Sequence record: OP292222.1
DNA: 64,000 bases
From: Escherichia phage Esco_phi_B-01
Reading direction: 5' to 3' (one strand)
Shown in pieces: positions 4,112 through 63,151 of the stretch. Positions within the stretch are counted from its first letter, which is position 1; every line of letters starts with the position of its first letter. The position numbers and the translations under genes are program-made. Under the pieces are notes generated by a model. The model searched no databases. It was not told the origin of the DNA and saw nothing but the letters and a program-made list of their open reading frames with translations.

Positions 4112-5804
4112 TAGAACTCATAGTCGACATAGTTTCAGACCAATTACCCGCAACGGTCATATCGACGTTTCCGTTTACCGACCACTTAACATTTCCATTT
4201 ACTGTATAATCATGGTTGCCTTCGACTAAGGTTTTTGCATCACCTTTAACAGTTATATCGGCATTGCCTTCAACAATAACCGTAACATTTCCTTTAACAA
4301 TAAGGGTCCCGTCGCCTTCTACCGTTTTGGTTTCATTACCACGAATATGGATGCTTTCAGAACCGTCGGTTTGACGACGAACGTTTGCCATATTATAATA
4401 GGTTTCATCGCCACCTATATTGACTTTATTATTACCACCAACATAAGTATTAGAATCGCCTTGGGTCATATAATACCCGTCGGCTACTGTCTTAGAAGTT
4501 TTACGTCCGTCAGGAGCGACTTCTTCGTAACTACCTGTAGGGTGGATTAATCGGTAACGTTCTTGCCCTGGGGTGTTATCGAATTCTTGGATATGCCCAC
4601 CTTCAGTTTGCATGGTTTGGACATATGGGTATTCGCCTTTATAACTAGAATCCGGCTCTTTAAAAAGAATCCTTGTATCTTCCGGAGTCCACGGGTCGGC
4701 AGGGTCAGAATTTGTAGGGGCTGCAAAGGTTTGAATCATCCTATAAGAACGGCCATTAAATTCTCTTTCTTTAGGGGCCATAATACCGTATGATTCCATA
4801 TTACCTGTAAGGATAATCATTGATACCCTTGATGCTCGGCCTTTAGTTTGGTTGAACCATACTGAATTGCGAGCTTCCTCAAATGCCTTTTTATAATCAC
4901 CTATTAGCATTGCACTGAGCATACCACGGAATTTAGCAAGCCCACCTAAACCCATTTGGAAGGCCATGTTTTCAAGAGCCATTTGTCTTGAACGGTTTTC
5001 TTTATTGTAAACAGGACCTACAACACTATGCCTGCCTATATCGTTTTGAACTTTTTTAAGGTCTTCTTGGAATAATTTAGAGGCCTCGTCCATTGATATT
5101 GCACCCGGGTTTCCTTTAACTTCACGACCTATTTGATTAGATAATATTTTGTTTATCTGATTCATATCTCTAATAGGTTGTGGTGTAATAAGGTGACCTA
5201 TACCAATAGTAGGGTATCCTTCGGTATCCCAATATACCTTCAGACGAAGACCCTCATCACGATGAAGCATGTTTTCTATTGTGAAATTAGGATTATCATC
5301 AGGCTTAACTTGGCTTAAATCTAATCCATCCGGATTAATACCTACATCAGTGTTTGCATCTTGTATTACGTTAGAAGTGGCATCATATCCAACTTCACCA
5401 CCTCGGTTTAGTGCAGCGGCATCATTACCTAAATAAAGTGGATACTGCCCTGTAGGGTCACTAAAACCTTCGTTTGGATTTGCCTTTTGTTTTGAAGCCG
5501 AACCATATGTGCCGAGGACAAGCCCGTTTAATTTCCACTTATCAAGAAAGTGTCCGTAAACTTGTGTACCTGGGACCATACCAGTCATAGCGGTTTGGAT
5601 ACCTGAAACAGAGGCGGAAGATGTAGGCATTAATACCGACATCCATGGTAAATCTTCTGTACGAAGGCCTTTTACAGGACCTTGTACTTTTTCATATGGA
5701 TGCATACCCCAGACGCGTACGCGTACTCGGCCCTGTTTGAGTGGGTCCATTCGGTCTTCAACTACACCGACGAACCAACTTAAATTATCAGACATGTTAA
5801 TCAT
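4062..5804 (-). CDS. 5: baseplate hub / cell-puncturing protein gp5 with lysozyme domain
   Basis: 580 aa; central segment LRLKVYWDTEGYPTIGIGHLI resembles T4 lysozyme; C-terminal VxGN repeats typical of the gp5 beta-helix. Confidence 0.9.
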   Translation of the reverse strand: MINMSDNLSWFVGVVEDRMDPLKQGRVRVRVWGMHPYEKVQGPVKGLRTEDLPWMSVLMPTSSASVSGIQTAMTGMVPGTQVYGHFLDKWKLNGLVLGTYGSASKQKANPNEGFSDPTGQYPLYLGNDAAALNRGGEVGYDATSNVIQDANTDVGINPDGLDLSQVKPDDNPNFTIENMLHRDEGLRLKVYWDTEGYPTIGIGHLITPQPIRDMNQINKILSNQIGREVKGNPGAISMDEASKLFQEDLKKVQNDIGRHSVVGPVYNKENRSRQMALENMAFQMGLGGLAKFRGMLSAMLIGDYKKAFEEARNSVWFNQTKGRASRVSMIILTGNMESYGIMAPKEREFNGRSYRMIQTFAAPTNSDPADPWTPEDTRILFKEPDSSYKGEYPYVQTMQTEGGHIQEFDNTPGQERYRLIHPTGSYEEVAPDGRKTSKTVADGYYMTQGDSNTYVGGNNKVNIGGDETYYNMANVRRQTDGSESIHIRGNETKTVEGDGTLIVKGNVTVIVEGNADITVKGDAKTLVEGNHDYTVNGNVKWSVNGNVDMTVAGNWSETMSTMSSIASGQYTIDGSRIDIG

Positions 5805-50351: not shown

Positions 50352-50714
50352 ATGATTGAAATTACTCTGAAACAACCTGAAGACTTCTTGAAAGTGAAAG
50401 AGACCCTAACTCGTATGGGTATCGCTAATAATAAAGAAAAGAAACTATATCAATCCTGTCACATTTTGCAAAAGCAAGGACGGTATTATATTGTCCACTT
50501 TAAAGAGATGTTGCGTATGGATGGCCGCCAGGTAGATATCGATGGTGAAGACTACCAACGCCGTGATTCCATAGCCCAGCTTCTTAAGGATTGGGGACTT
50601 ATTGATATTGTAGACGATTCTGAATTGTTCGAAATTACTAATAATTTCCGTGTCATTTCATTTAAACAGAAAAATGACTGGGAACTGCTGTCTAAGTATA
50701 CGATTGGTAATTAA
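50352..50714 (+). CDS. regA: translational repressor RegA
   Basis: MIEITLKQPEDFLKVKETLTRMGIANNKEK...FRVISFKQK closely matches T4 RegA. Confidence 0.9.
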   Translation: MIEITLKQPEDFLKVKETLTRMGIANNKEKKLYQSCHILQKQGRYYIVHFKEMLRMDGRQVDIDGEDYQRRDSIAQLLKDWGLIDIVDDSELFEITNNFRVISFKQKNDWELLSKYTIGN

Positions 50715-50724
50715 GTTTAAGCAA

Positions 50725-50745
50725 AGGGACTTTGGTCCCTTTTTG
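50725..50745 (+). terminator. hairpin plus T run between regA and gene 43 (terminator and/or gene 43 translational operator)
   Basis: AGGGAC-TTTG-GTCCCT plus TTTT, followed by GAGTATAAT and the gene 43 RBS. Confidence 0.5.
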
Positions 50746-50802
50746 GAGTATAATTATTCATCAACAAACAAAAGACAATCACTCGTCTATAAAGGAAATG
50801 AA

Positions 50803-53514
50803 ATGCAAGAATTCTATTTGACAGTCGAACAAATCGGTGATAATATTCTCGAACGTTACATCGATAAAAATGGTAACGAACGTAGTCGTGAAGTTCCTTA
50901 CAAGCCTACAATGTTTATGCATGCCAACCCAGAGCAAGCCGTAAAATATATTGACATCTACGGTAAGGGCTGTGTTAAGAAAGAATTCGATTCAATGCGC
51001 GATGCTTCTCAGTGGATGAAGCGAATGGACGATATGGGTCTCGAAGCCCTTGGTATGGACGACTACAAATTAGCCTATTTGTCTGATACCTATCGTAAAG
51101 AAATCAAGTATGATTCTTCCAAGATTCGTATTGCTAACTTCGACATCGAGGTAACATCTCCTGATGGATTCCCTGAACCTGCCCAGGCTAAACATCCTAT
51201 CGATGCCATTACTCACTACGACTCGATTGACGATAAATTCTATGTATTCGACCTTTTAGTTTCACCTTATGGTACGGTCGAAGAGTGGTCGATTAAAATC
51301 GCTGAGAAACTCCAAGACGAAGGTGGTGACGAAGTTCCACAAGAAATCATTGACAAAATCGTTTATCTTCCGTTTAATTCTGAAGAAGAAATGATGCTTG
51401 AGTATCTGAATTTCTGGCAACAGAAAACTCCTGTGATTTTGACTGGATGGAACGTTGAATCATTTGACGTGCCATACGTTTATAACCGTCTGAAAAATCT
51501 GTTTGGTGAGAACACTGCTAAGCGATTAAGCCCGCATCGTAAGACTCGTGTTAAAGTTATCGAGAATATGTACGGTGTTCGTGAAATTATTACACTGTTC
51601 GGTATTTCTGTTCTGGATTATATCGACCTTTATAAAAAATTCAGCTTTACTAACCAGCCTTCTTATTCTCTGGATTATGTTTCTGAATATGAATTGAAAG
51701 TAGGTAAGTTGAAATATGATGGTCCTATCTCCAAGTTACGTGAGACAAACCACCAACGATATATTTCCTATAACATTATCGACGTATATCGTGTTGTGCA
51801 GATTGATATGAAACGCCAGTTCATTCTTCTTAGTCTGGACATGGGTTATTATGCTAAGATGCAGATTCAGTCAGTGTTCAGTCCAATTAAGACTTGGGAC
51901 GCTATTATCTTTAATAGCCTTAAAGAACAGGGTAAAGTTATTCCTCAGGCCAAATCGCATGCGGTTCAACCTTATCCAGGTGCTTTCGTTAAGGAACCTA
52001 TTCCTAACGCGTACAAATATGTAATGAGTTTCGACCTTACATCTCTGTACCCAAGTATCATTCGACAAGTGAATATAAGCCCAGAGACCATCGCAGGCAC
52101 ATTCGCCAACGCACCGATACATGAATATATTGCCGGAACTGCTCCGCGTCCTAGCGACACCTACAGTTGCTCTCCTAACGGCATGATGTACTATAAAGAC
52201 CGTGATGGTGTGATTCCTACAGAAATCACGAAGGTGTTCTTACAACGTAAAGAACATAAAGGTTATATGCTCGCAGCTCAACGTAATGGTGAGTTAATTA
52301 AAGAAGCATTAGAAAATCCTAATCCATCTGTTGATAGTCCACTGGATATCGATTATCGTTTCGACTTCTCTGACGAAATCAAAGCCCAGATTAAAAAATT
52401 GTCAGCATCTTCTTTAAAAGAAATGTTGTTCAAAGCCGAACGTACTGAAGTCGCAGGTATGACTGCTCAGATTAACCGTAAGTTGCTTATCAACTCCCTT
52501 TATGGTGCACTTGGTAACGTATGGTTCCGTTACTATGACCTCAGGAACGCAACTGCAATCACATTGTTTGGTCAAATGGCCCTCCAATGGATTGAACGTA
52601 AGGTTAACGAATATCTGAATAGCGTATGTAAGACCGAAAACCAGAAGTTCGTGCTCTATGGTGATACCGACTCCATTTATGTTAAGGCCGATGCAATCAT
52701 CAATAAAGTAGGCGAAGATAAATTCCGTGATACTAACCACTGGGTTGACTTCTTAGATAAATTTGCACGTGAACGTATGGAACCAGCTATTGATGCAGGC
52801 TTCCGTGAGATGTGTGAATACATGAACAATAAACAGCACTTGATGTTCATGGACCGAGAAGCTATCGCAGGTCCTCCACTTGGTTCTAAAGGTCTTGGTG
52901 GATTCTGGACAGGCAAGAAACGTTATGCACTGAACGTTTGGGACATGGAAGGTACTCGTTATGCCGAACCACACTTGAAAATCATGGGTCTCGAAACTCA
53001 GAAATCAAGTACACCTAAAGCGGTTCAGAAAGCACTGAAAGAATGTATCCGTCGTATGCTTCAAGAAGGCGAGGCCTCTTTGCAAGAGTATTTCAAACAG
53101 TTTAATAAGGAATTTAACGAATTAGACTATGTAAGCATTGCTGCAGTATCCAGTGCTAACAACATCGAGAAATATAATGAAGGTGGTTTCCCTGGTTCTA
53201 AATGCCCGTATCACATCAAAGGTTGCTTAGCTTACATGCGTGCTTCTGCTGGTGATTTGACTATGCCTCGTATCGTTGATGGTGAAAAGGTATATGTACT
53301 GCCACTTAAAGAAGGCAACCCGTTCGGTGAAGCTTGTATGGCATGGCCGTCAGGTATTGAACTTCCGATTCAGATTCGTGACCAAGTCCTCCGTTGGATG
53401 GACTACAACGTACTGTTCCAAAAGACCTTTATCAAACCCCTGACCGGTTTTACTGAGTCTGCTAAAATCGACTACGAGAAAAAAGCAACATTATTTGACA
53501 TGTTTGACTTTTAA
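50803..53514 (+). CDS. 43: DNA polymerase gp43 (family B)
   Basis: 903 aa from MQEFYLTVEQIGDN; exonuclease motif FDIEV, polymerase motifs SLYPSI and YGDTDS; N-terminus resembles RB69 pol. Confidence 0.9.
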   Translation: MQEFYLTVEQIGDNILERYIDKNGNERSREVPYKPTMFMHANPEQAVKYIDIYGKGCVKKEFDSMRDASQWMKRMDDMGLEALGMDDYKLAYLSDTYRKEIKYDSSKIRIANFDIEVTSPDGFPEPAQAKHPIDAITHYDSIDDKFYVFDLLVSPYGTVEEWSIKIAEKLQDEGGDEVPQEIIDKIVYLPFNSEEEMMLEYLNFWQQKTPVILTGWNVESFDVPYVYNRLKNLFGENTAKRLSPHRKTRVKVIENMYGVREIITLFGISVLDYIDLYKKFSFTNQPSYSLDYVSEYELKVGKLKYDGPISKLRETNHQRYISYNIIDVYRVVQIDMKRQFILLSLDMGYYAKMQIQSVFSPIKTWDAIIFNSLKEQGKVIPQAKSHAVQPYPGAFVKEPIPNAYKYVMSFDLTSLYPSIIRQVNISPETIAGTFANAPIHEYIAGTAPRPSDTYSCSPNGMMYYKDRDGVIPTEITKVFLQRKEHKGYMLAAQRNGELIKEALENPNPSVDSPLDIDYRFDFSDEIKAQIKKLSASSLKEMLFKAERTEVAGMTAQINRKLLINSLYGALGNVWFRYYDLRNATAITLFGQMALQWIERKVNEYLNSVCKTENQKFVLYGDTDSIYVKADAIINKVGEDKFRDTNHWVDFLDKFARERMEPAIDAGFREMCEYMNNKQHLMFMDREAIAGPPLGSKGLGGFWTGKKRYALNVWDMEGTRYAEPHLKIMGLETQKSSTPKAVQKALKECIRRMLQEGEASLQEYFKQFNKEFNELDYVSIAAVSSANNIEKYNEGGFPGSKCPYHIKGCLAYMRASAGDLTMPRIVDGEKVYVLPLKEGNPFGEACMAWPSGIELPIQIRDQVLRWMDYNVLFQKTFIKPLTGFTESAKIDYEKKATLFDMFDF

Positions 53515-53516
53515 GT

Positions 53517-53570
53517 GTTTACATACCACATGGAACGTGGTATTATCCTTCCTATCAACTACATGAGGAA
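53517..53570 (+). promoter_or_regulatory. PeSL-like early promoter
   Basis: GTTTAC 53517-53522, TATTAT 53541-53546, CCTATCAACTACATGAGGAA. Confidence 0.55.
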
Positions 53571-53576
53571 ATTATA

Positions 53577-53813
53577 ATGGAAGCTTTAATCGTTAGTGCT
53601 GGTGTTTTAGGATTCGGTTCTCTGGCTATTATGTTCATTGGTTACTTTTTACCATGGATTCTAGCTCTTTTGCGAGGCACCCGTAGCAATGTCGGAATCT
53701 TCTTCCTTAATCTCTTGTTAGGATGGACGATGATTGGTTGGGTAGTGGCTTTAATCTGGGCCATCGTCGCTGAACGTAAATCAAACGCACAAATCATTAT
53801 CGTTAAACAATGA
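53577..53813 (+). CDS. imm: superinfection immunity protein Imm-like
   Basis: 78 aa, two TM helices, LLGWTMIGWVVALIWA motif; immediately after gene 43 as in T4. Confidence 0.65.
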   Translation: MEALIVSAGVLGFGSLAIMFIGYFLPWILALLRGTRSNVGIFFLNLLLGWTMIGWVVALIWAIVAERKSNAQIIIVKQ

Positions 53814-53947
53814 AGATAATTATTTTATTTCTTATAATGACTGCCTTTACCGTTTATTGGGCAGTGGCAATTCCTCCAATGATTCCAACATTAATCATAG
53901 GATGGATTATTCTTATAGCACAAATTAAGTATAACTGTTTTAATTGA
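53810..53947 (+). CDS. small hydrophobic membrane peptide
   Basis: 45 aa ORF below the track cutoff, ATGA overlap with imm stop, almost entirely hydrophobic. Confidence 0.35.
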   Translation: MKIIILFLIMTAFTVYWAVAIPPMIPTLIIGWIILIAQIKYNCFN

Positions 53948-53954
53948 GGATATT

Positions 53955-54455
53955 ATGAAAAAGTTAATTATCGCAATGAGTATGCTCCTATCAGGTTGCG
54001 CGGTCCAATACGGTGATGCAGTTTCGGCTGATGAAGTTGGTAAAGCTCGTATTGCAGCTGAACAGAAACAATTCGACGGCGAAATGAAATTCCGTGCCGG
54101 TTCTGGACTTGTGTATACCCGAGCTAATAATCAATGTGGTAATAACTGTGCAAAATATGCTCAAAGGGAAATCGAATTCCAACGTGAACAAGAGTCTAAG
54201 CGTGAAGAGGTACTAGCCAAACACCAGGCAGAAATGAAGCGCCAAGATGATTTGTACAAAAAGCAGAAACTGTATTCTATGTGTGTAAACCATATCAATC
54301 TACAGATTTCTGTCCATGAGGCTCGTTATTACGAAATGCTCGAAACCGAGAGCTTCGATAAAGCTCGTGATTATAAGAAACAAATCAACAAGCTTAAGAC
54401 CAAAGTGCCTGCTGCAGTAGAACAGTGCATGGAATACGGTAAAGATAAGATTTAA
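53955..54455 (+). CDS. lipoprotein (hypothetical)
   Basis: signal peptide with lipobox LLSGC; charged coiled-coil mature part. Confidence 0.55.
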   Translation: MKKLIIAMSMLLSGCAVQYGDAVSADEVGKARIAAEQKQFDGEMKFRAGSGLVYTRANNQCGNNCAKYAQREIEFQREQESKREEVLAKHQAEMKRQDDLYKKQKLYSMCVNHINLQISVHEARYYEMLETESFDKARDYKKQINKLKTKVPAAVEQCMEYGKDKI

Positions 54456-54515
54456 GCAATAGAAATTTATTAAAAATAGTGTATAATGTACCTACATTCA
54501 CTTGAGGAACAGATA

Positions 54516-56189
54516 ATGAAAAAGGTTGTTATTTTAGGCGCAGGTCTTGGCTCACGGTTGTATCCAATTACTAACGAAATCCCGAAGGTATTGGTTAACT
54601 ATAAACAACATACGGTATTAAAGCATTTGTATGATTTGTATAGTAACCAATCAGATGAAATTATTCTGGTTATTCACAGCAAATTTAACGACCTCGTTAA
54701 AGGCTATATTAAATCCATTAACATGATTACTGGTGATAAGCCTAAATTCACTATTCGTAACGTTGATGTTGCTAATGGTTCAGCTCATGCAATCGATTGC
54801 ATTGCCGAAGATATCATTGGCCATAATGTCCTGTTTAACTGGTGTGACATCATTCCTATCGGTCATAAAGTTGAATGGGGTAACGACTACTGTTATACCT
54901 ATGGAACTGACTGTCGTTTTACATTTGAAGAACCGTACTTACGTGAAATTGGTACTGGTGGCGGTGTAGTTGGTTTGTATCAGGTAGCCAATTGGACAGG
55001 TTTCGACCGTTCTAATTATGGTGAAGACCTTGCTGATAACCTGGATTCAATGGTCTATTTGACCGAACGTAAACTGGATTTTGTAGTTGATGTCGGTGAC
55101 AAATTGAAACTGGCTAAGGCCCATGAAGAATCTGAAATTAACCGTGAATTTAATAAATTAGAATTCACCGAGAATCTGGCTATTAAAGTACCAACTAACG
55201 AATTAGGTAAAGAAATTCAATCTAAAGAAATCAATTGGTATAATTCTATTGATTCTGAATTCGTTCCTAGCATTGTAGACTTTTCTCCAGGCGAATTCAT
55301 TAAAATGGAACGTATCTTTGGTCGAACCATGGCAGATGCCTACCGGTTTATGTCCAAAGAAACTAAAGTCCTCATGGTTTATAAGGTCATTAGTGCATTA
55401 CGTTCATTTGGTGGAACTATTGATAACCCGTCCGATGAGCAATGGTATTCCGATGTTAAGAAAGAAGTATTGGACAAGGTCCTTATTCGTAATGCTTCTA
55501 TTGCTGGATTGATTGAAGGCTTTGCTCCACAGGGCATTACCCATGTTAACGATTTCAAAGTAGGCGACCCTGAAAAACTTCTTCGCCATGCACTAGAAAT
55601 TCTGTCTGAACATAAAGAACCGTACCAACTTATTCATGGCGACCCGCACTACAGTAATATTATGCTGTCGGACGAAGGTGATATTAAAATCATCGACCCA
55701 CGTGGTTATTTCGGTAATAGTTCTAAAGGCCCTGCGATTTATGATGAAGCTAAGGTGCTTTATTCTATCGATGGCTATGACAAATTTAACTCAGACCCTC
55801 TATGGGGCGGATTAACTCGTAACGGAACTCGTGTATTCGTTGATATCGAAAAGATTATGCCTTTAGACGATATCCCTATGTGCACATTTAAGCACAAGCT
55901 CTGGATTGCTGTTATTTGGATGGCTCTGGCAGGTTACTTTAAGAATAACCCTCTGAAAGCTCTAGGTGCTTATTATAACGGTTTGTACCAACTGAGTGTG
56001 CTGCTGAAGCGGCATCCTCGTAAGCGTAAGCTTATTACGGGTGAATTTGTCGATGAAGTTCGTGACCCTATTACGGCTCAAATTATTACTCGTTGTCCTG
56101 ATAAGTGGGTTTTGCTTGACCAGGAAACTGGTGTAAAATATAAACCTACAGGTTCTACTGAACTCCACAAACAATGGAAGAAAATTTAA
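54516..56189 (+). CDS. bifunctional nucleotidyltransferase / small-molecule kinase fusion
   Basis: N-terminus KVVILGAGLGSRLYPITNEIPKVLV fits sugar-phosphate (LicC/MurU/RmlA-type) nucleotidyltransferases; C-terminus LIHGDPHYSNIM...IIDPRG fits the APH/choline-kinase-like catalytic loop. Confidence 0.6.
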   Translation: MKKVVILGAGLGSRLYPITNEIPKVLVNYKQHTVLKHLYDLYSNQSDEIILVIHSKFNDLVKGYIKSINMITGDKPKFTIRNVDVANGSAHAIDCIAEDIIGHNVLFNWCDIIPIGHKVEWGNDYCYTYGTDCRFTFEEPYLREIGTGGGVVGLYQVANWTGFDRSNYGEDLADNLDSMVYLTERKLDFVVDVGDKLKLAKAHEESEINREFNKLEFTENLAIKVPTNELGKEIQSKEINWYNSIDSEFVPSIVDFSPGEFIKMERIFGRTMADAYRFMSKETKVLMVYKVISALRSFGGTIDNPSDEQWYSDVKKEVLDKVLIRNASIAGLIEGFAPQGITHVNDFKVGDPEKLLRHALEILSEHKEPYQLIHGDPHYSNIMLSDEGDIKIIDPRGYFGNSSKGPAIYDEAKVLYSIDGYDKFNSDPLWGGLTRNGTRVFVDIEKIMPLDDIPMCTFKHKLWIAVIWMALAGYFKNNPLKALGAYYNGLYQLSVLLKRHPRKRKLITGEFVDEVRDPITAQIITRCPDKWVLLDQETGVKYKPTGSTELHKQWKKI

Positions 56190-56572
56190 TGTCGTATCGA
56201 GTAGAAAATAAGCCACATTTATGTTTTGATATCGATAACACAATCACGATTTGGAACCATGACCGTGATTATGAGAACTTTAAACCGGACACCGAAATGG
56301 TGTCCATGATTAATAAGCTTTATGATGAAGGGTACGAGATTACATTGTTCACCGCGCGTGGCATGACTTCATGTGGCCCAGGTCGAATCTTGGTTGAAGT
56401 AGTTCCTGCCTTGGTTAAGAACCTTGAAAAAATTGGATTGAAATATCACAATTTGCTTACACATAAGCCGAGTTATACTTTTATCATCGATGACCGAGCA
56501 ATCCGTCCTGACCACTTTAAAGAAATGGTTCGTGAAGGAACTCTTGATGGTTATAAGGCCTATCATCCATGA
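56189..56572 (+). CDS. HAD-superfamily phosphatase-like protein (alternative start 56174)
   Basis: motif I CFDIDNTIT (DxDxT), motif II ITLFTARG, motif IV FIIDDRA. Confidence 0.55.
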   Translation: MSYRVENKPHLCFDIDNTITIWNHDRDYENFKPDTEMVSMINKLYDEGYEITLFTARGMTSCGPGRILVEVVPALVKNLEKIGLKYHNLLTHKPSYTFIIDDRAIRPDHFKEMVREGTLDGYKAYHP

Positions 56573-57105
56573 ATCCAAAAATCATTGTTATAGACGGCCC
56601 GGATAATTCCGGGAAGTCCACTTTAATTAAAAATCTGTTATCCAATAAGAAATACCGCCTTATTGATTTTCCTAAAAAGATTAATGGCAAGTGTATTTCA
56701 TTAGGAACTGATAACGATAAGGCTTTAGTTGAAACTCTGTATAAGTTTTTAGACCCTAATTTCGTTTATATCCTTGACCGTGGTTATCCAAGTAATATTG
56801 TTTACTCAGGATTCCTTCGTGGTGAAATGGACCCTTATGTAGAACTGGAAGATTGGAAAGGGTTTAAATCTGAATTTAACGTTATCGAGGTTATTTTAAC
56901 TCGCAACCCATTAGACGAAGACTTCGAAGACGACCTTATTAAATTAACCGAAGATGAGTTCAACCTAACTATCCGGCAATACGAAACATGTTTTGAAAAC
57001 GTGTTTAAAATCTTAAATCATGACGGCCATAATAATTTGCTTAATGTTGATATGGTAGAATTAAAACGTCTGAACGAATATATTGAAAATAAGGTGAATA
57101 AATGA
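56569..57105 (+). CDS. P-loop nucleotide kinase-like protein (thymidylate-kinase-like)
   Basis: IVIDGPDNSGKST P-loop at the N-terminus; 178 aa. Confidence 0.5.
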   Translation: MNPKIIVIDGPDNSGKSTLIKNLLSNKKYRLIDFPKKINGKCISLGTDNDKALVETLYKFLDPNFVYILDRGYPSNIVYSGFLRGEMDPYVELEDWKGFKSEFNVIEVILTRNPLDEDFEDDLIKLTEDEFNLTIRQYETCFENVFKILNHDGHNNLLNVDMVELKRLNEYIENKVNK

Positions 57106-57800
57106 AACACATTACCGCTGTTAGTTTTGAAAATGCATTTAAACAAATGAACGAAGAAATCCTGGAAGCTCCACAGTTTGCAGTTGATTCTCGTATCGGA
57201 CGTTGTTATGAAATTGGTTCTGCTTCGGTAGAAGTACTGGATGCAAGCACCTATAAATTCACCGACCCACGTATTAATCGTATTAGTTATGAATATGCCG
57301 AATCCTTTTGGAAATTTATGATTTCTGGTGGTACTGACGCTGCCGAAGCATTTAAGGAATACCCTAATGTTGCTAAGTTCATTGATAAGCCGAAAAGTGA
57401 CGTATTGCCTGCAAACTTCAACACTTTCTATGGACCTCGAATTGTGGCCCAACTCCCAGCCCTACTTAAAGAGCTTAAAGAAAAGGCTAACTCGCGAAGA
57501 GTTGTGTTCCAGATTCTCCAAGAACAAGACCAAGCCCTCCTTGATTCTGACGAATCCTTAGAATATCCGTGTACCGATTCGGTAACGTATTATATTCGTG
57601 ACGGACGTTTGTATGCACACACCCATATGCGTTCACAGAACTGCGCTGTTGTTATGCAGCTGGATTTCTATCTGCAGGGTAAACTGATGGCATTTATTGC
57701 TGAACAGTGTGGTGTCGGTTTAGGTACATATTCCCACACCATGGTAAGTGCACACGTGTTTGAACGCGATTTTGACTACGTCCGAGGTTTCCTGAAATGA
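57102..57800 (+). CDS. 42: dCMP hydroxymethylase gp42
   Basis: catalytic region EYPCTDSVTYYIRDGRLYAHTHMRSQNCAVV aligns with T4 gp42 DFMCTNTVQYLIRDKKINAVVNMRSNDVVFG. Confidence 0.8.
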   Translation: MKHITAVSFENAFKQMNEEILEAPQFAVDSRIGRCYEIGSASVEVLDASTYKFTDPRINRISYEYAESFWKFMISGGTDAAEAFKEYPNVAKFIDKPKSDVLPANFNTFYGPRIVAQLPALLKELKEKANSRRVVFQILQEQDQALLDSDESLEYPCTDSVTYYIRDGRLYAHTHMRSQNCAVVMQLDFYLQGKLMAFIAEQCGVGLGTYSHTMVSAHVFERDFDYVRGFLK

Positions 57801-58690
57801 GTTTGTTTATCGTTCCTATTTTCAGTATGCGTAGTTACGAAACAGGTGAATATGCCGTCCTTAAGGACGGCAATTTTCAACTCCATTTAAATCGTGCTCG
57901 TCCAGGTGATTATCTGGCTTATCCTAGAAATTCGAGCGATATCAAAGAATGCATTGAATTATTCCCGGAACTGAATTTCGTACCACTTTGGTATAAAGAA
58001 AATGCTTATGAAACCCGTAAACATTTCTGGTCTGAAAATGAGTTTGTAGTCGATTCACTAATCGAATACTACGATTGCTCAGGACTGGTAACTGATATCA
58101 CCGGTTATGATGGTGCTCACACTGTACAATTCAACTTTAATATCACAATGGACCCTGAAGTTCCTCGTTATTATATCGACGAGTTCATTGATATTGATGT
58201 GGCTTCAGTTGAACGTTCACTTTATACTACAGTCCTGAATCAATGCCAGAAAGACGTCCTGGTGTCACGAGGTGCATCCTCTGATAAGATTTTTGTAGAC
58301 CAAAAGGTAATTAATCCTGCAGTAATTGAGCGTTACTCTGAAGGTCTAGCGCCTATTAAAATTGATGGTATTTTCCATCCATTCCGTATTTCGGATAAGT
58401 GCTATCAATTCGAAAGAGTTGTAGACCAAGCTGCCGCTGAAGGTGCTCGTCTTTATATCACTGACCCGAATGATTCATTTAAGCGTGAAGACTATCGTCC
58501 TGATGTAGAGATTATTAAATTCAAACCGAGTAAGGTTGAATATTATCAAATTCTGAAATCAAGACCACATATCATTTATCATGAGAACCCAGGTTTAGTA
58601 TTCCATCCTGGTCTGGCTGAATTCATTTATTTCGGTGCCAATATTCATTCTGAATACGAAATGCCACGTTATGAGGACGTAGTATGCTAG
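57797..58690 (+). CDS. hypothetical protein at the beta-gt position (candidate DNA glycosyltransferase)
   Basis: 297 aa between gene 42 and uvsX, where T4 has beta-glucosyltransferase; no recognisable similarity to T4 beta-gt by eye. Confidence 0.4.
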   Translation: MSLFIVPIFSMRSYETGEYAVLKDGNFQLHLNRARPGDYLAYPRNSSDIKECIELFPELNFVPLWYKENAYETRKHFWSENEFVVDSLIEYYDCSGLVTDITGYDGAHTVQFNFNITMDPEVPRYYIDEFIDIDVASVERSLYTTVLNQCQKDVLVSRGASSDKIFVDQKVINPAVIERYSEGLAPIKIDGIFHPFRISDKCYQFERVVDQAAAEGARLYITDPNDSFKREDYRPDVEIIKFKPSKVEYYQILKSRPHIIYHENPGLVFHPGLAEFIYFGANIHSEYEMPRYEDVVC

Positions 58691-62857: not shown

Positions 62858-63151
62858 ATGAAAAAGTTATTAATCGCAGCAATCCTTACAGTAGCATCAT
62901 GTGGTACAGCTCCAGTTACGGCTGGATTGGATAAAGACCTTTGTGAATGGTCTATGACCGCAGACCAAGAATCAGTTGAACATCAGATTTACGCTGATAT
63001 CATGAATATCACTAAACGTGACCGTCCTGATATGGTTAAAGAAGTATCTGACCAATTGGCTTCTAGCGGTGTTATGCAGTATAACTATGTTCTGTACTGT
63101 GATGCTAATTTCGATAACAAAAATATTGTTAAAGAGGTGATAGGTGAATAA
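62858..63151 (+). CDS. lipoprotein (hypothetical)
   Basis: signal peptide with lipobox LTVASCG; 97 aa. Confidence 0.5.
   Translation: MKKLLIAAILTVASCGTAPVTAGLDKDLCEWSMTADQESVEHQIYADIMNITKRDRPDMVKEVSDQLASSGVMQYNYVLYCDANFDNKNIVKEVIGE

Follow-up and report, generated by a model that had tools for sequence, protein, structure and literature searches.

The Dhakavirus version of the T-even imm locus: Imm, a translationally coupled small membrane protein and a predicted outer-membrane lipoprotein of the Imm.1 family

The window analysed here, a 64,000-nucleotide stretch of Escherichia phage Esco_phi_B-01 (OP292222.1), belongs to a JS98-like Dhakavirus and has about 98% nucleotide identity to JS98 and MN04 by megablast. 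Directly downstream of the gene 43 stop codon (53514, + strand), three genes follow one another on the + strand, at exactly the coordinates given in the original prediction, which had proposed that they form a superinfection-exclusion cluster. The first is imm (53577..53813), encoding a protein of 78 aa. The second (53810..53947) encodes a hydrophobic peptide of 45 aa and the third (53955..54455) a lipoprotein of 166 aa that belongs to the Imm.1 family. The corresponding JS98 genes are named imm, orf44 and orf43. A promoter-like site, TTTACA-17-TATTAT with a TG extension (53518..53546, + strand), is present 31 nt upstream of imm. It is of the T4 early (sigma-70) type, matches the consensus at 10 of 12 positions and has the top score in the region. 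A scan of the segment 53350-54650 revealed no terminator-like site. The promoter-like site is likely the start of a three-gene early transcript, and the evidence supports the view that imm, the 42.1/Y02C peptide gene and the Imm.1-family lipoprotein gene are packed closely into a single unit that follows a promoter resembling those of T4 early genes. On the 3' side of the trio are sugar-nucleotide genes of the arabinose type.

The T-even imm locus is conserved, and the region is its Dhakavirus form; as a genome-scan finding it is already known and ordinary. The trio is found almost base for base in dozens of sequenced Dhakaviruses. The window also encodes its own sp, at 62858-63151.

The imm product, an inner-membrane protein with two TM segments, belongs to the T4 Imm family. 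Its match to Pfam PF14373 (Imm_superinfect) scores 65.1 bits (E=5e-18; cut-off 27.9 bits), and that to phrog_1039, 'immunity to superinfection', has E=5e-32. It aligns over its full length with T4 Imm at 46% identity (E=6e-22). Hydropathy analysis (Kyte-Doolittle, 19-residue windows, a score of at least 1.6) showed two hydrophobic segments, at about residues 3-34 (or 1-34) and 39-66. The two-TM Imm-like protein described from the sequence is therefore a bona fide T4 Imm homologue. T4 Imm keeps the DNA of T-even phages that adsorb secondarily from passing through the inner membrane (PMC7677548, PMC6832632), and by analogy the window Imm would block the entry of superinfecting T-even DNA. A Shine-Dalgarno sequence, GAGGAAA, is present upstream of imm.

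The start codon of the peptide gene and the stop codon of imm lie in a shared overlap of 4 nt, ATGA, and the peptide is hydrophobic over residues 1-39. Homologues of 45-49 aa with an invariant C-terminal motif were found in seven genera. The T4 counterpart is a 49-aa ORF between imm and 42 ('42.1'/Y02C), to which the window peptide aligns with a BLASTP E value of 3e-13. Both match phrog_3610 (E=3e-21 for the window peptide and 1e-25 for the T4 ORF), and the L016/L017 orthologue has a precomputed match to PF26865, Phage_T4_Y02C. Across the seven genera the synonymous sites of the gene are saturated (pS 0.63-0.98) and pN is 0.18-0.36. The ATGA coupling is retained even when the upstream gene is one other than imm. 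A chance ORF in the spacer between imm and the lipoprotein gene could be suspected from the very short length, the lack of an obvious Shine-Dalgarno sequence of its own and the missing annotation in the T4 RefSeq record and several Dhakavirus records, but this is highly improbable in the face of the preserved length, frame and motif, the low pN, a PHROG of its own with the PF26865 match on a homologue, and an overlap that is kept with other upstream genes. The peptide, whose reading frame had been noticed in the original prediction, is a conserved small membrane protein, translationally coupled to imm and under purifying selection.

The signal peptide of the third gene product ends in a lipobox, LLSGC, with Ala at the +2 position, which predicts anchoring on the periplasmic face of the outer membrane. 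The mature part contains 27 K+R and 24 D+E in 151 residues. In the AlphaFold (AF2) model, which has a pLDDT of 82, it folds into a beta-hairpin, a single long helix and a helical bundle, in that order. Residues 63-163 are predicted to be helical, and the pLDDT is 88-98 across the last ~90 residues. These features agree with the earlier description of a lipoprotein with a charged helical periplasmic domain. Conserved residues of the hairpin are G49, G51, Y54, R56 and Q60. There is a CGNNC loop, and the helical part carries the invariant cysteines C110 and C158. The membrane-proximal hairpin is the conserved part of the protein and the helical bundle is variable. Of 27 diverse family members, 26 keep the lipobox, defined by the pattern [LVI][ASTVI][GAS]C, with its Cys, and none of these has Asp at +2. 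The one remaining member has no lipid anchor and carries an ordinary signal peptide instead, so a periplasmic location is a constant feature of the family. A Pfam search with the lipoprotein gave no match at E<=1, the family profile, run against the sequences of solved structures, gave nothing below E=0.5, and fold searches of the PDB and BFVD returned only generic helical matches. NCBIfam and PADLOC had no match for any of the three proteins.

The gene order in T4 is 43, imm.1, imm, the unannotated 49-aa ORF and 42. The product of imm.1, encoded between 43 and imm, is a 125-aa lipoprotein with the lipobox LAGC. It matches phrog_1754 (E=6e-43, residues 1-124), as does the window lipoprotein (E=4e-52, residues 1-163), and when T4 Imm.1 is aligned with the family, the lipobox Cys and both C110 and C158 are invariant. 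The earlier statement that T4 has no lipoprotein at this site is therefore false. Comparison with T4 imm.1 and imm, which had been proposed along with it, showed that all three gene families are present in T4 in a permuted order. When hhalign profiles of 19 and 27 sequences were compared with T4 alone or with T4 plus Mosigvirus, residues 1-31 of the window lipoprotein were the only part aligned with T4 Imm.1 (probability 93-96%); this part consists of the signal peptide and ~15 mature residues (96% probability). An exhaustive HMM search of 1.84 billion representatives with a JS98-type profile yielded a family of only 24 clusters, among which the T4 type was absent. T4 Imm.1 matches Pfam PF17578 (DUF5481) with 239 bits. 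The window lipoprotein does not, at the E<=1 limit given above, and therefore represents a sister subfamily, not DUF5481 itself.

The lipoprotein gene is contiguous with imm in nine lineages, in three gene orders. These lineages are Dhakavirus, Gaprivervirus, Tequatrovirus, Gelderlandvirus, phage Ursula, Mosigvirus and three metagenomic ones. The Mosigvirus lipoprotein and imm genes lie together away from gene 43, at a different locus beside spackle (sp). In most genera the usual constant neighbour of the lipoprotein gene is gene 43, rather than imm. PEi20 (Kanagawavirus) has the lipoprotein, the peptide and sp, and Imm was not found in its whole genome. Winklervirus and Kagamiyamavirus are also without imm at the locus, and in all three genera the lipoprotein and peptide genes flank sugar-nucleotide genes, not imm. 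Many phages have Imm without the lipoprotein or the peptide. Imm is widespread, occurring in phages of Klebsiella, Acinetobacter and Mycobacterium and in Salmonella siphoviruses, host groups that are not among the lipoprotein matches listed. Since PEi20 has the lipoprotein and peptide without Imm, the partnership of Imm and the lipoprotein is not obligate. A dependence of Imm on the lipoprotein was rejected, both from PEi20 and from the wide occurrence of Imm without it. The region from gene 43 to 42/uvsX is variable and gathers small early genes, and the adjacency of imm and the lipoprotein gene may therefore be partly historical.

Superinfection exclusion in T4 has been credited for decades to two proteins, Imm and Sp, and to our knowledge how Imm works is still not understood. 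The literature searched reports no function for imm.1, DUF5481 or the 42.1 peptide. The recurrent linkage of the lipoprotein gene to imm, and to spackle in Mosigvirus, favours a role in the envelope or in superinfection, short of proof. The joint reading that we prefer, a conserved imm locus with an envelope-protection role for the lipoprotein and the peptide, is given a probability of roughly 0.55. Judged from linkage and timing, the lipoprotein and peptide would join Imm and Spackle as envelope proteins produced in the opening minutes of infection. Most probably they would shield the envelope of the infected cell from secondary adsorption, be it by exclusion, by resistance to lysis from without or by stabilising lysis inhibition. 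From its anchor in the inner leaflet of the outer membrane, the lipoprotein would work in the periplasm. Instead of masking one receptor it would target a step shared by every T-even infection, and it would not be an obligate cofactor of Imm. The proposal of a superinfection-exclusion cluster thus survives in part: the Imm homologue, the tight early unit and the recurrent imm/sp linkage speak for it, and the lipoprotein as a receptor mask does not.

The Imm.1 family and the peptide follow imm through several rearrangements and lie beside sp in Mosigvirus, and they are therefore candidates for missing exclusion components. A more specific proposal adds the Imm.1-family lipoprotein, and perhaps the Y02C peptide with it, to Imm and Spackle as a third, hitherto unrecognised T-even exclusion or envelope-protection factor; this is put forward tentatively and is itself rather doubtful. 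Its conserved beta-hairpin might then serve as a contact surface, and the step affected could be the one in which the tail tip or gp5 crosses the periplasm, or the one in which the trans-envelope DNA conduit forms. Even if the lipoprotein and peptide play no part in exclusion, the database annotations are corrected. T4 imm.1 carries the label 'iduronate sulfatase', its homologues are called 'capsid and scaffold protein', and RefSeq has no annotation for the T4 49-aa ORF.

The strongest alternative is that the lipoprotein and peptide are unrelated to superinfection, have another early role in the envelope and came to lie beside imm through the hot spot after gene 43. They might, for instance, tune the envelope stress of the host, the integrity of the outer membrane or peptidoglycan during infection or the timing of lysis, or serve a function specific to the host. 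PEi20, with both genes and no Imm in its genome, fits such a role, as do the sugar-nucleotide neighbours in Kanagawavirus, Winklervirus and Kagamiyamavirus and the constancy of gene 43, not imm, as neighbour in most genera. Neither protein is similar to any known exclusion protein. However, the Mosigvirus lipoprotein gene moved with imm to sp, which is hard to explain by accumulation in a hot spot alone, and the contiguity of imm and the lipoprotein gene survives three gene orders. T4 imm.1 and sp also share an expression class, which is early for both RNA and protein (PMC9697503, supplement). An unrelated role is a distinct possibility, though not the reading that we favour.

The original prediction had compared the lipoprotein with T5 Llp. 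Both T5 Llp and the lambdoid Cor are lipoproteins of the outer membrane, and the receptor that they block is FhuA; Llp is synthesised early in infection. A receptor mask of this kind would bind an outer-membrane receptor from the periplasmic side and block productive adsorption. The lipoprotein is predicted to be outer-membrane-anchored, periplasmic and early, its gene is linked to imm, and its conserved hairpin is membrane-proximal, near the periplasmic turns of outer-membrane proteins, all of which would suit such a mask. The sequence and the fold, however, lend the analogy no support. The match to phrog_1119 (Cor; E=0.014) is confined to residues 1-18, that is, to the signal peptide, and does not place the lipoprotein in the Llp/Cor family. 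The 151-residue mature part has a hairpin and helical fold in the AlphaFold model, with the generic PDB matches noted above, and one family member has no lipid anchor. The primary receptors of T-even phages differ within a genus (OmpC, Tsx, FadL, OmpA), yet the lipoprotein is nearly invariant within genera: T4-type Imm.1 is 95-100% identical to T4 Imm.1 in 502 of 657 records, and the Dhakavirus lipoprotein is 90-99% identical to the window protein in 51 records. Receptor masking is therefore disfavoured and is an improbable function for this protein.

Two further candidates were rejected. An o-spanin (Rz1-like) was discarded on the early type of the promoter and the lack of an i-spanin neighbour; T4-like spanins, pseT.2 and pseT.3, are encoded at other loci, for example in PEi20. 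A lysozyme inhibitor (Sp, MliC/PliC or Ivy) was discarded as there is no Pfam match at E<=1, no similarity to Sp and no specific fold. The GxGLxY hairpin followed by a CxxxC loop is, in our estimation, reminiscent of the loops of lysozyme inhibitors.

Among known systems the closest is JS98, the type species of Dhakavirus, in which the order and spacing of the three genes are unchanged from the window. The JS98 peptide is annotated from a later start codon, giving 36 aa, whereas the window peptide is 45 aa. In the T4 locus, too, these three gene families follow directly after gene 43 on its strand, with an ATGA overlap that couples imm and the peptide and with early-type expression. T4 Imm.1, like the window lipoprotein, has a lipobox and two conserved C-terminal cysteines. 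The two loci differ in that the lipoprotein gene is last in the window and in Gaprivervirus but first in T4, and in that the downstream genes are 42 and beta-gt in T4 and sugar-nucleotide genes in the window. In addition, the 166-aa window lipoprotein has the GxGLxY hairpin and the CGNNC loop, and the 125-aa T4 Imm.1 has neither.

Llp and Cor resemble the window lipoprotein in being phage-encoded and in their predicted placement in the inner leaflet of the outer membrane. There is no detectable homology between them, and the mature part of the window protein is predicted to be mostly helical. The family to which it belongs keeps its sequence across phages with different receptors and showed no sign of receptor specificity.

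T4 Spackle (Sp, gp61.3) is a periplasmic inhibitor of the gp5 tail lysozyme. The Sp mechanism is known (PMC7677548), and background on T4 Imm and Sp is also given in PMC6832632. Spackle is a small, early, periplasmic T-even protein that contains a disulfide, and the window lipoprotein is predicted to share these features. Spackle is, however, soluble and has no sequence similarity to the lipoprotein, whereas the window protein is predicted to be lipid-anchored. In Mosigvirus, sp adjoins imm and the gene for the Imm.1-like lipoprotein.

Three open reading frames on the + strand (53577-54455) lie directly 3' of the stop codon of gene 43, the DNA polymerase gene, at 53514. The first, imm (53577-53813), encodes a 78-aa protein with two membrane-length hydrophobic stretches by hydropathy. 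The second (53810-53947), whose ATG overlaps the preceding stop (ATGA), encodes a 45-aa peptide that is continuously hydrophobic over residues 1-39. The third (53955-54455), with GAGGA in front, encodes a 166-aa lipoprotein. The original prediction had described all three accurately in every particular, as judged from ORF coordinates, hydropathy and composition. A T4 early-type promoter-like site (TTTACA-17-TATTAT, 10 of 12 matches, TG extension) is present at 53518-53546, the next promoter-like site (54460-54487) stands ahead of the gene after the lipoprotein, and a scan of 53350-54650 found no terminator-like hairpin. With a promoter 5' of imm and no such hairpin, the three genes look like a single early transcription unit.

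The segment 53400-54600 matched 54 phage records by megablast. The best, at 98% identity, are Dhakavirus records, among them JS98, JS10, MN04 and IME281, and in JS98 the trio is labelled imm, orf44 ('similar to RB69 orf054c') and orf43 (hypothetical). The locus has therefore been in the databases many times already; it is a known, widely sequenced and conserved T-even module, and ordinary as a scan finding. Upstream, coordinate arithmetic gave a regA-gene 43 gap of ~89 bp (50714-50803), compared with ~300 bp in JS98 and UP19 (comparison locus L001, 2104-2404), where it holds a 71-aa ORF (orf47, RB32 ORF047c-like). The window phage appears to lack this small gene, and owing to the short gap a mechanical ORF list gives gene 43 a spurious GTG-extended N-terminus at 50650.

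As predicted, the first protein is Imm. It matched PF14373 at 65 bits (cut-off 27.9 bits) and phrog_1039, 'immunity to superinfection', at E=5e-32, and T4 Imm aligns with it end to end at 46% identity. Proteins of this family block DNA entry at the inner membrane, and the window Imm would be expected to do the same.

The prediction that T4 has no lipoprotein at this site was wrong. The T4 record has the order 43, imm.1 (378 bp), imm, an unannotated 150-bp stretch and 42. On translation, Imm.1 starts MKIAILVIALGLAGC..., a lipobox, and the 150-bp stretch contains a 49-aa ORF that begins with an ATG overlapping the stop codon of imm. This ORF is 53% identical to the window peptide over the C-terminal 30 residues (E=3e-13). 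T4 therefore has both a lipoprotein and a peptide at the site, and the Dhakavirus locus (imm, peptide, lipoprotein) is, from these comparisons, a permutation of the T4 locus (lipoprotein, imm, peptide). Several database entries look like annotation errors. In the T4 RefSeq (NC_000866, locus L003) the conserved 49-aa ORF between imm and 42 (4228-4377, - strand) is unannotated and imm.1 (4637-5014, - strand) is named 'iduronate sulfatase'; several records label lipoprotein homologues 'capsid and scaffold protein' or 'recombination endonuclease subunit-containing protein'.

The window lipoprotein matched phrog_1754 over its full length (E=4e-52); weak matches to Cor and 'lipoprotein' PHROGs covered the signal peptide only and were rejected. 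Past the signal peptide it has no membrane-length hydrophobic stretch by hydropathy, and the 151-residue mature protein has 27 K+R and 24 D+E. An AlphaFold model from a 27-sequence alignment (pLDDT 82; 88-98 from residue 70 on) consists of a short helix (25-39), a β-hairpin (42-56), a long helix (63-131) and C-terminal helices (134-149 and 151-163). Conservation, scored over 27 diverse family members, peaks in the hairpin region (residues 42-60; mean top-residue frequency 0.59) and is only 0.30 in the helical two-thirds. Y54, C110 and C158 are invariant in all 27, and K2, G14, C15, G49, G51 and Q60 nearly so. The two remaining cysteines, C61 and C65 (CGNNC), are either both present or both replaced (QVSxES in the S16 type), as expected for a putative disulfide pair. 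In E. coli the residue at +2 decides the membrane to which a lipoprotein is sorted. Asp at +2 is absent from all 26 lipobox-bearing members, and the rule thus predicts anchoring in the outer membrane. The remaining member, P0035 from a metagenomic contig (L018 385-792), has the same gene order (imm, peptide, protein) as lipobox-bearing members and an ordinary cleavable signal peptide (…AFGVNA|E) with no lipobox. Its sequence points to periplasmic location as the invariant feature of the family; the lipid anchor is apparently dispensable in at least one lineage and not universal.

T4 Imm.1 also matched phrog_1754 over its full length (E=6e-43), which places it in the same PHROG. It matched Pfam DUF5481 at 239 bits, a model that gave no match to the window lipoprotein. 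Profiles of the JS98 type, the group of the window protein, built from 19 or 27 sequences, aligned with profiles of the T4 and Mosigvirus type over residues 1-31 only (probability 93-96%), a stretch comprising the signal peptide and the motif GC-x-x-Q-x-G-x-x-V-x-x-x-[ED]-V-G-[KQ]. Run exhaustively as an HMM against 1.84 billion representative proteins, the JS98-type profile retrieved only 24 clusters, the T4 type not among them. Both types follow one cysteine plan: a lipid Cys, a pair that may be absent, and two C-terminal cysteines, invariant in a family alignment with T4 Imm.1 among its sequences. The shared PHROG, post-lipobox motif and cysteine plan favor common ancestry, as do the same neighbors and the finding of no T4-type Imm.1 within the window, sp region included. 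The two are therefore treated as probable divergent subfamilies of one family. That T4 has a lipoprotein beside imm is independent of this relationship.

The peptide is evidently a real gene. The window peptide (E=3e-21) and the T4 ORF (E=1e-25) both matched phrog_3610, the VR7 record names it 'gp42.1', and a metagenomic orthologue has a precomputed match to PF26865, 'Phage_T4_Y02C'. Its homologues, 45-49 aa long, are found in Dhakavirus, Gaprivervirus, Tequatrovirus, Kanagawavirus, Winklervirus and Kagamiyamavirus, and the JS98 annotation points to another in RB69; they have in common the motif Y-x(6)-P-x-M-[IV]-P-T-x(4)-W-x(4)-Q-x-[KR]-[YF]-x-C-[FI]-N-stop. Between genera, pS was 0.63-0.98 and pN 0.18-0.36. 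The ATG overlaps the imm stop in T4, Dhakavirus, Gaprivervirus and metagenomic locus L016; in Edwardsiella phage PEi20 it overlaps instead the stop of an arabinose-5-phosphate isomerase gene.

The lipoprotein's neighbors were tabulated in every lineage that could be fetched. The order (43) imm, peptide, lipoprotein was found in Dhakavirus, Gaprivervirus and metagenomic loci L016/L017 and L018; 43, lipoprotein, imm, peptide, 42 in T4; and 43, lipoprotein, imm, 42 in S16, Ursula and metagenomic L022. Mosigvirus p000v uses a different site from the gene 43 neighborhood of other genera: there, dmd and the primase gene flank an uninterrupted run of three genes, for an Imm.1-like lipoprotein (LTGC), Imm and spackle (L011 3495-4530). 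The lipoprotein-imm pair was thus kept through three gene orders and one relocation, ending in the last case beside the other known exclusion gene. In PEi20, Entb_45, CHI14 and EcS1 the order is 43, lipoprotein, isomerase, peptide and sugar genes, with no imm at the locus. PEi20 (L012-L015) keeps the lipoprotein, the peptide and sp, and an HMM search of its whole genome found no Imm (best E=0.13; positive control 4.5e-36); it is apparently a T-even relative without imm. Imm is also far more widespread (1633 phage records, those of Klebsiella, Acinetobacter and Mycobacterium phages among them) than the lipoprotein (126 JS98-type and 657 T4-type records, listed hosts mainly Enterobacterales). 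The genes are therefore associated, not interdependent.

Beyond the identities, predicted locations, co-transcription signals, conservation and linkage shown for the three proteins, the favored reading is that the lipoprotein and peptide would be part of Imm's early program, altering the infected-cell envelope against secondary adsorption. The small conserved hairpin near the anchor would suit binding to the host envelope or to something that all T-even infections share. In a time course of T4 infection followed by transcriptomics and proteomics, imm.1 (listed under UniProt P18057 as a 'hypothetical predicted membrane protein') and sp both fell into the 'early RNA, early protein' class (PMC9697503, supplementary files 4 and 6). 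Protein of the T4 relative is therefore present in the first minutes, when exclusion is established, in agreement with the early-type promoter at the window locus. A comparative paper lists Imm.1 among T4-group-specific genes and speculates on exclusion (PMC5885020); the literature searched yielded no experimental statement on imm.1 or the 49-aa ORF and no mention of DUF5481. Almost equal weight is given to a different envelope function for the lipoprotein and peptide, their linkage to imm being largely historical; PEi20 speaks most strongly for this view, the Mosigvirus relocation most strongly against it. The lipoprotein is unlikely to mask a receptor in the manner of Llp or Cor, since it has no homology to either and hardly varies within Tequatrovirus (95-100% identity in 502 of 657 records) or within Dhakavirus, whereas receptor use differs among phages of a single genus. 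The locus keeps a modest interest for the lipoprotein and peptide, to which no function is assigned, as candidate factors in T-even superinfection exclusion, a long-standing problem.

Exclusion in T4 is credited to two products, Sp and Imm, Sp being a periplasmic inhibitor of the gp5 tail lysozyme (PMC7677548). Imm, located in the plasma membrane, acts in a way described as 'less easily understood', and both resistance to lysis from without and maintenance of lysis inhibition are partly defective in imm mutants and in sp mutants (PMC6832632). Directly 3' of the lipoprotein, a sugar-nucleotide gene set (54486-58690, + strand) replaces the 42 and beta-gt segment of T4. It comprises a 567-aa NTP_transferase and APH-kinase fusion, a 132-aa HAD-like 'phosphoheptose isomerase', a 178-aa P-loop 'thymidylate kinase'-like protein, a gene 42-like ORF (57102-57800) and an RB69 orf047c-like ORF. 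Its ORFs match RB69 orf052c, 051c, 045c, 048c and 047c, a set linked in the literature to arabinosyl-hmC DNA modification (PMC6024577). A 97-aa spackle (sp) homologue (62858-63151, + strand; E=2e-46 against Mosigvirus Sp) follows ~9 kb downstream of imm. This phage accordingly has genes for both of the exclusion factors documented in T4, which stand apart in the window but are adjacent in Mosigvirus.
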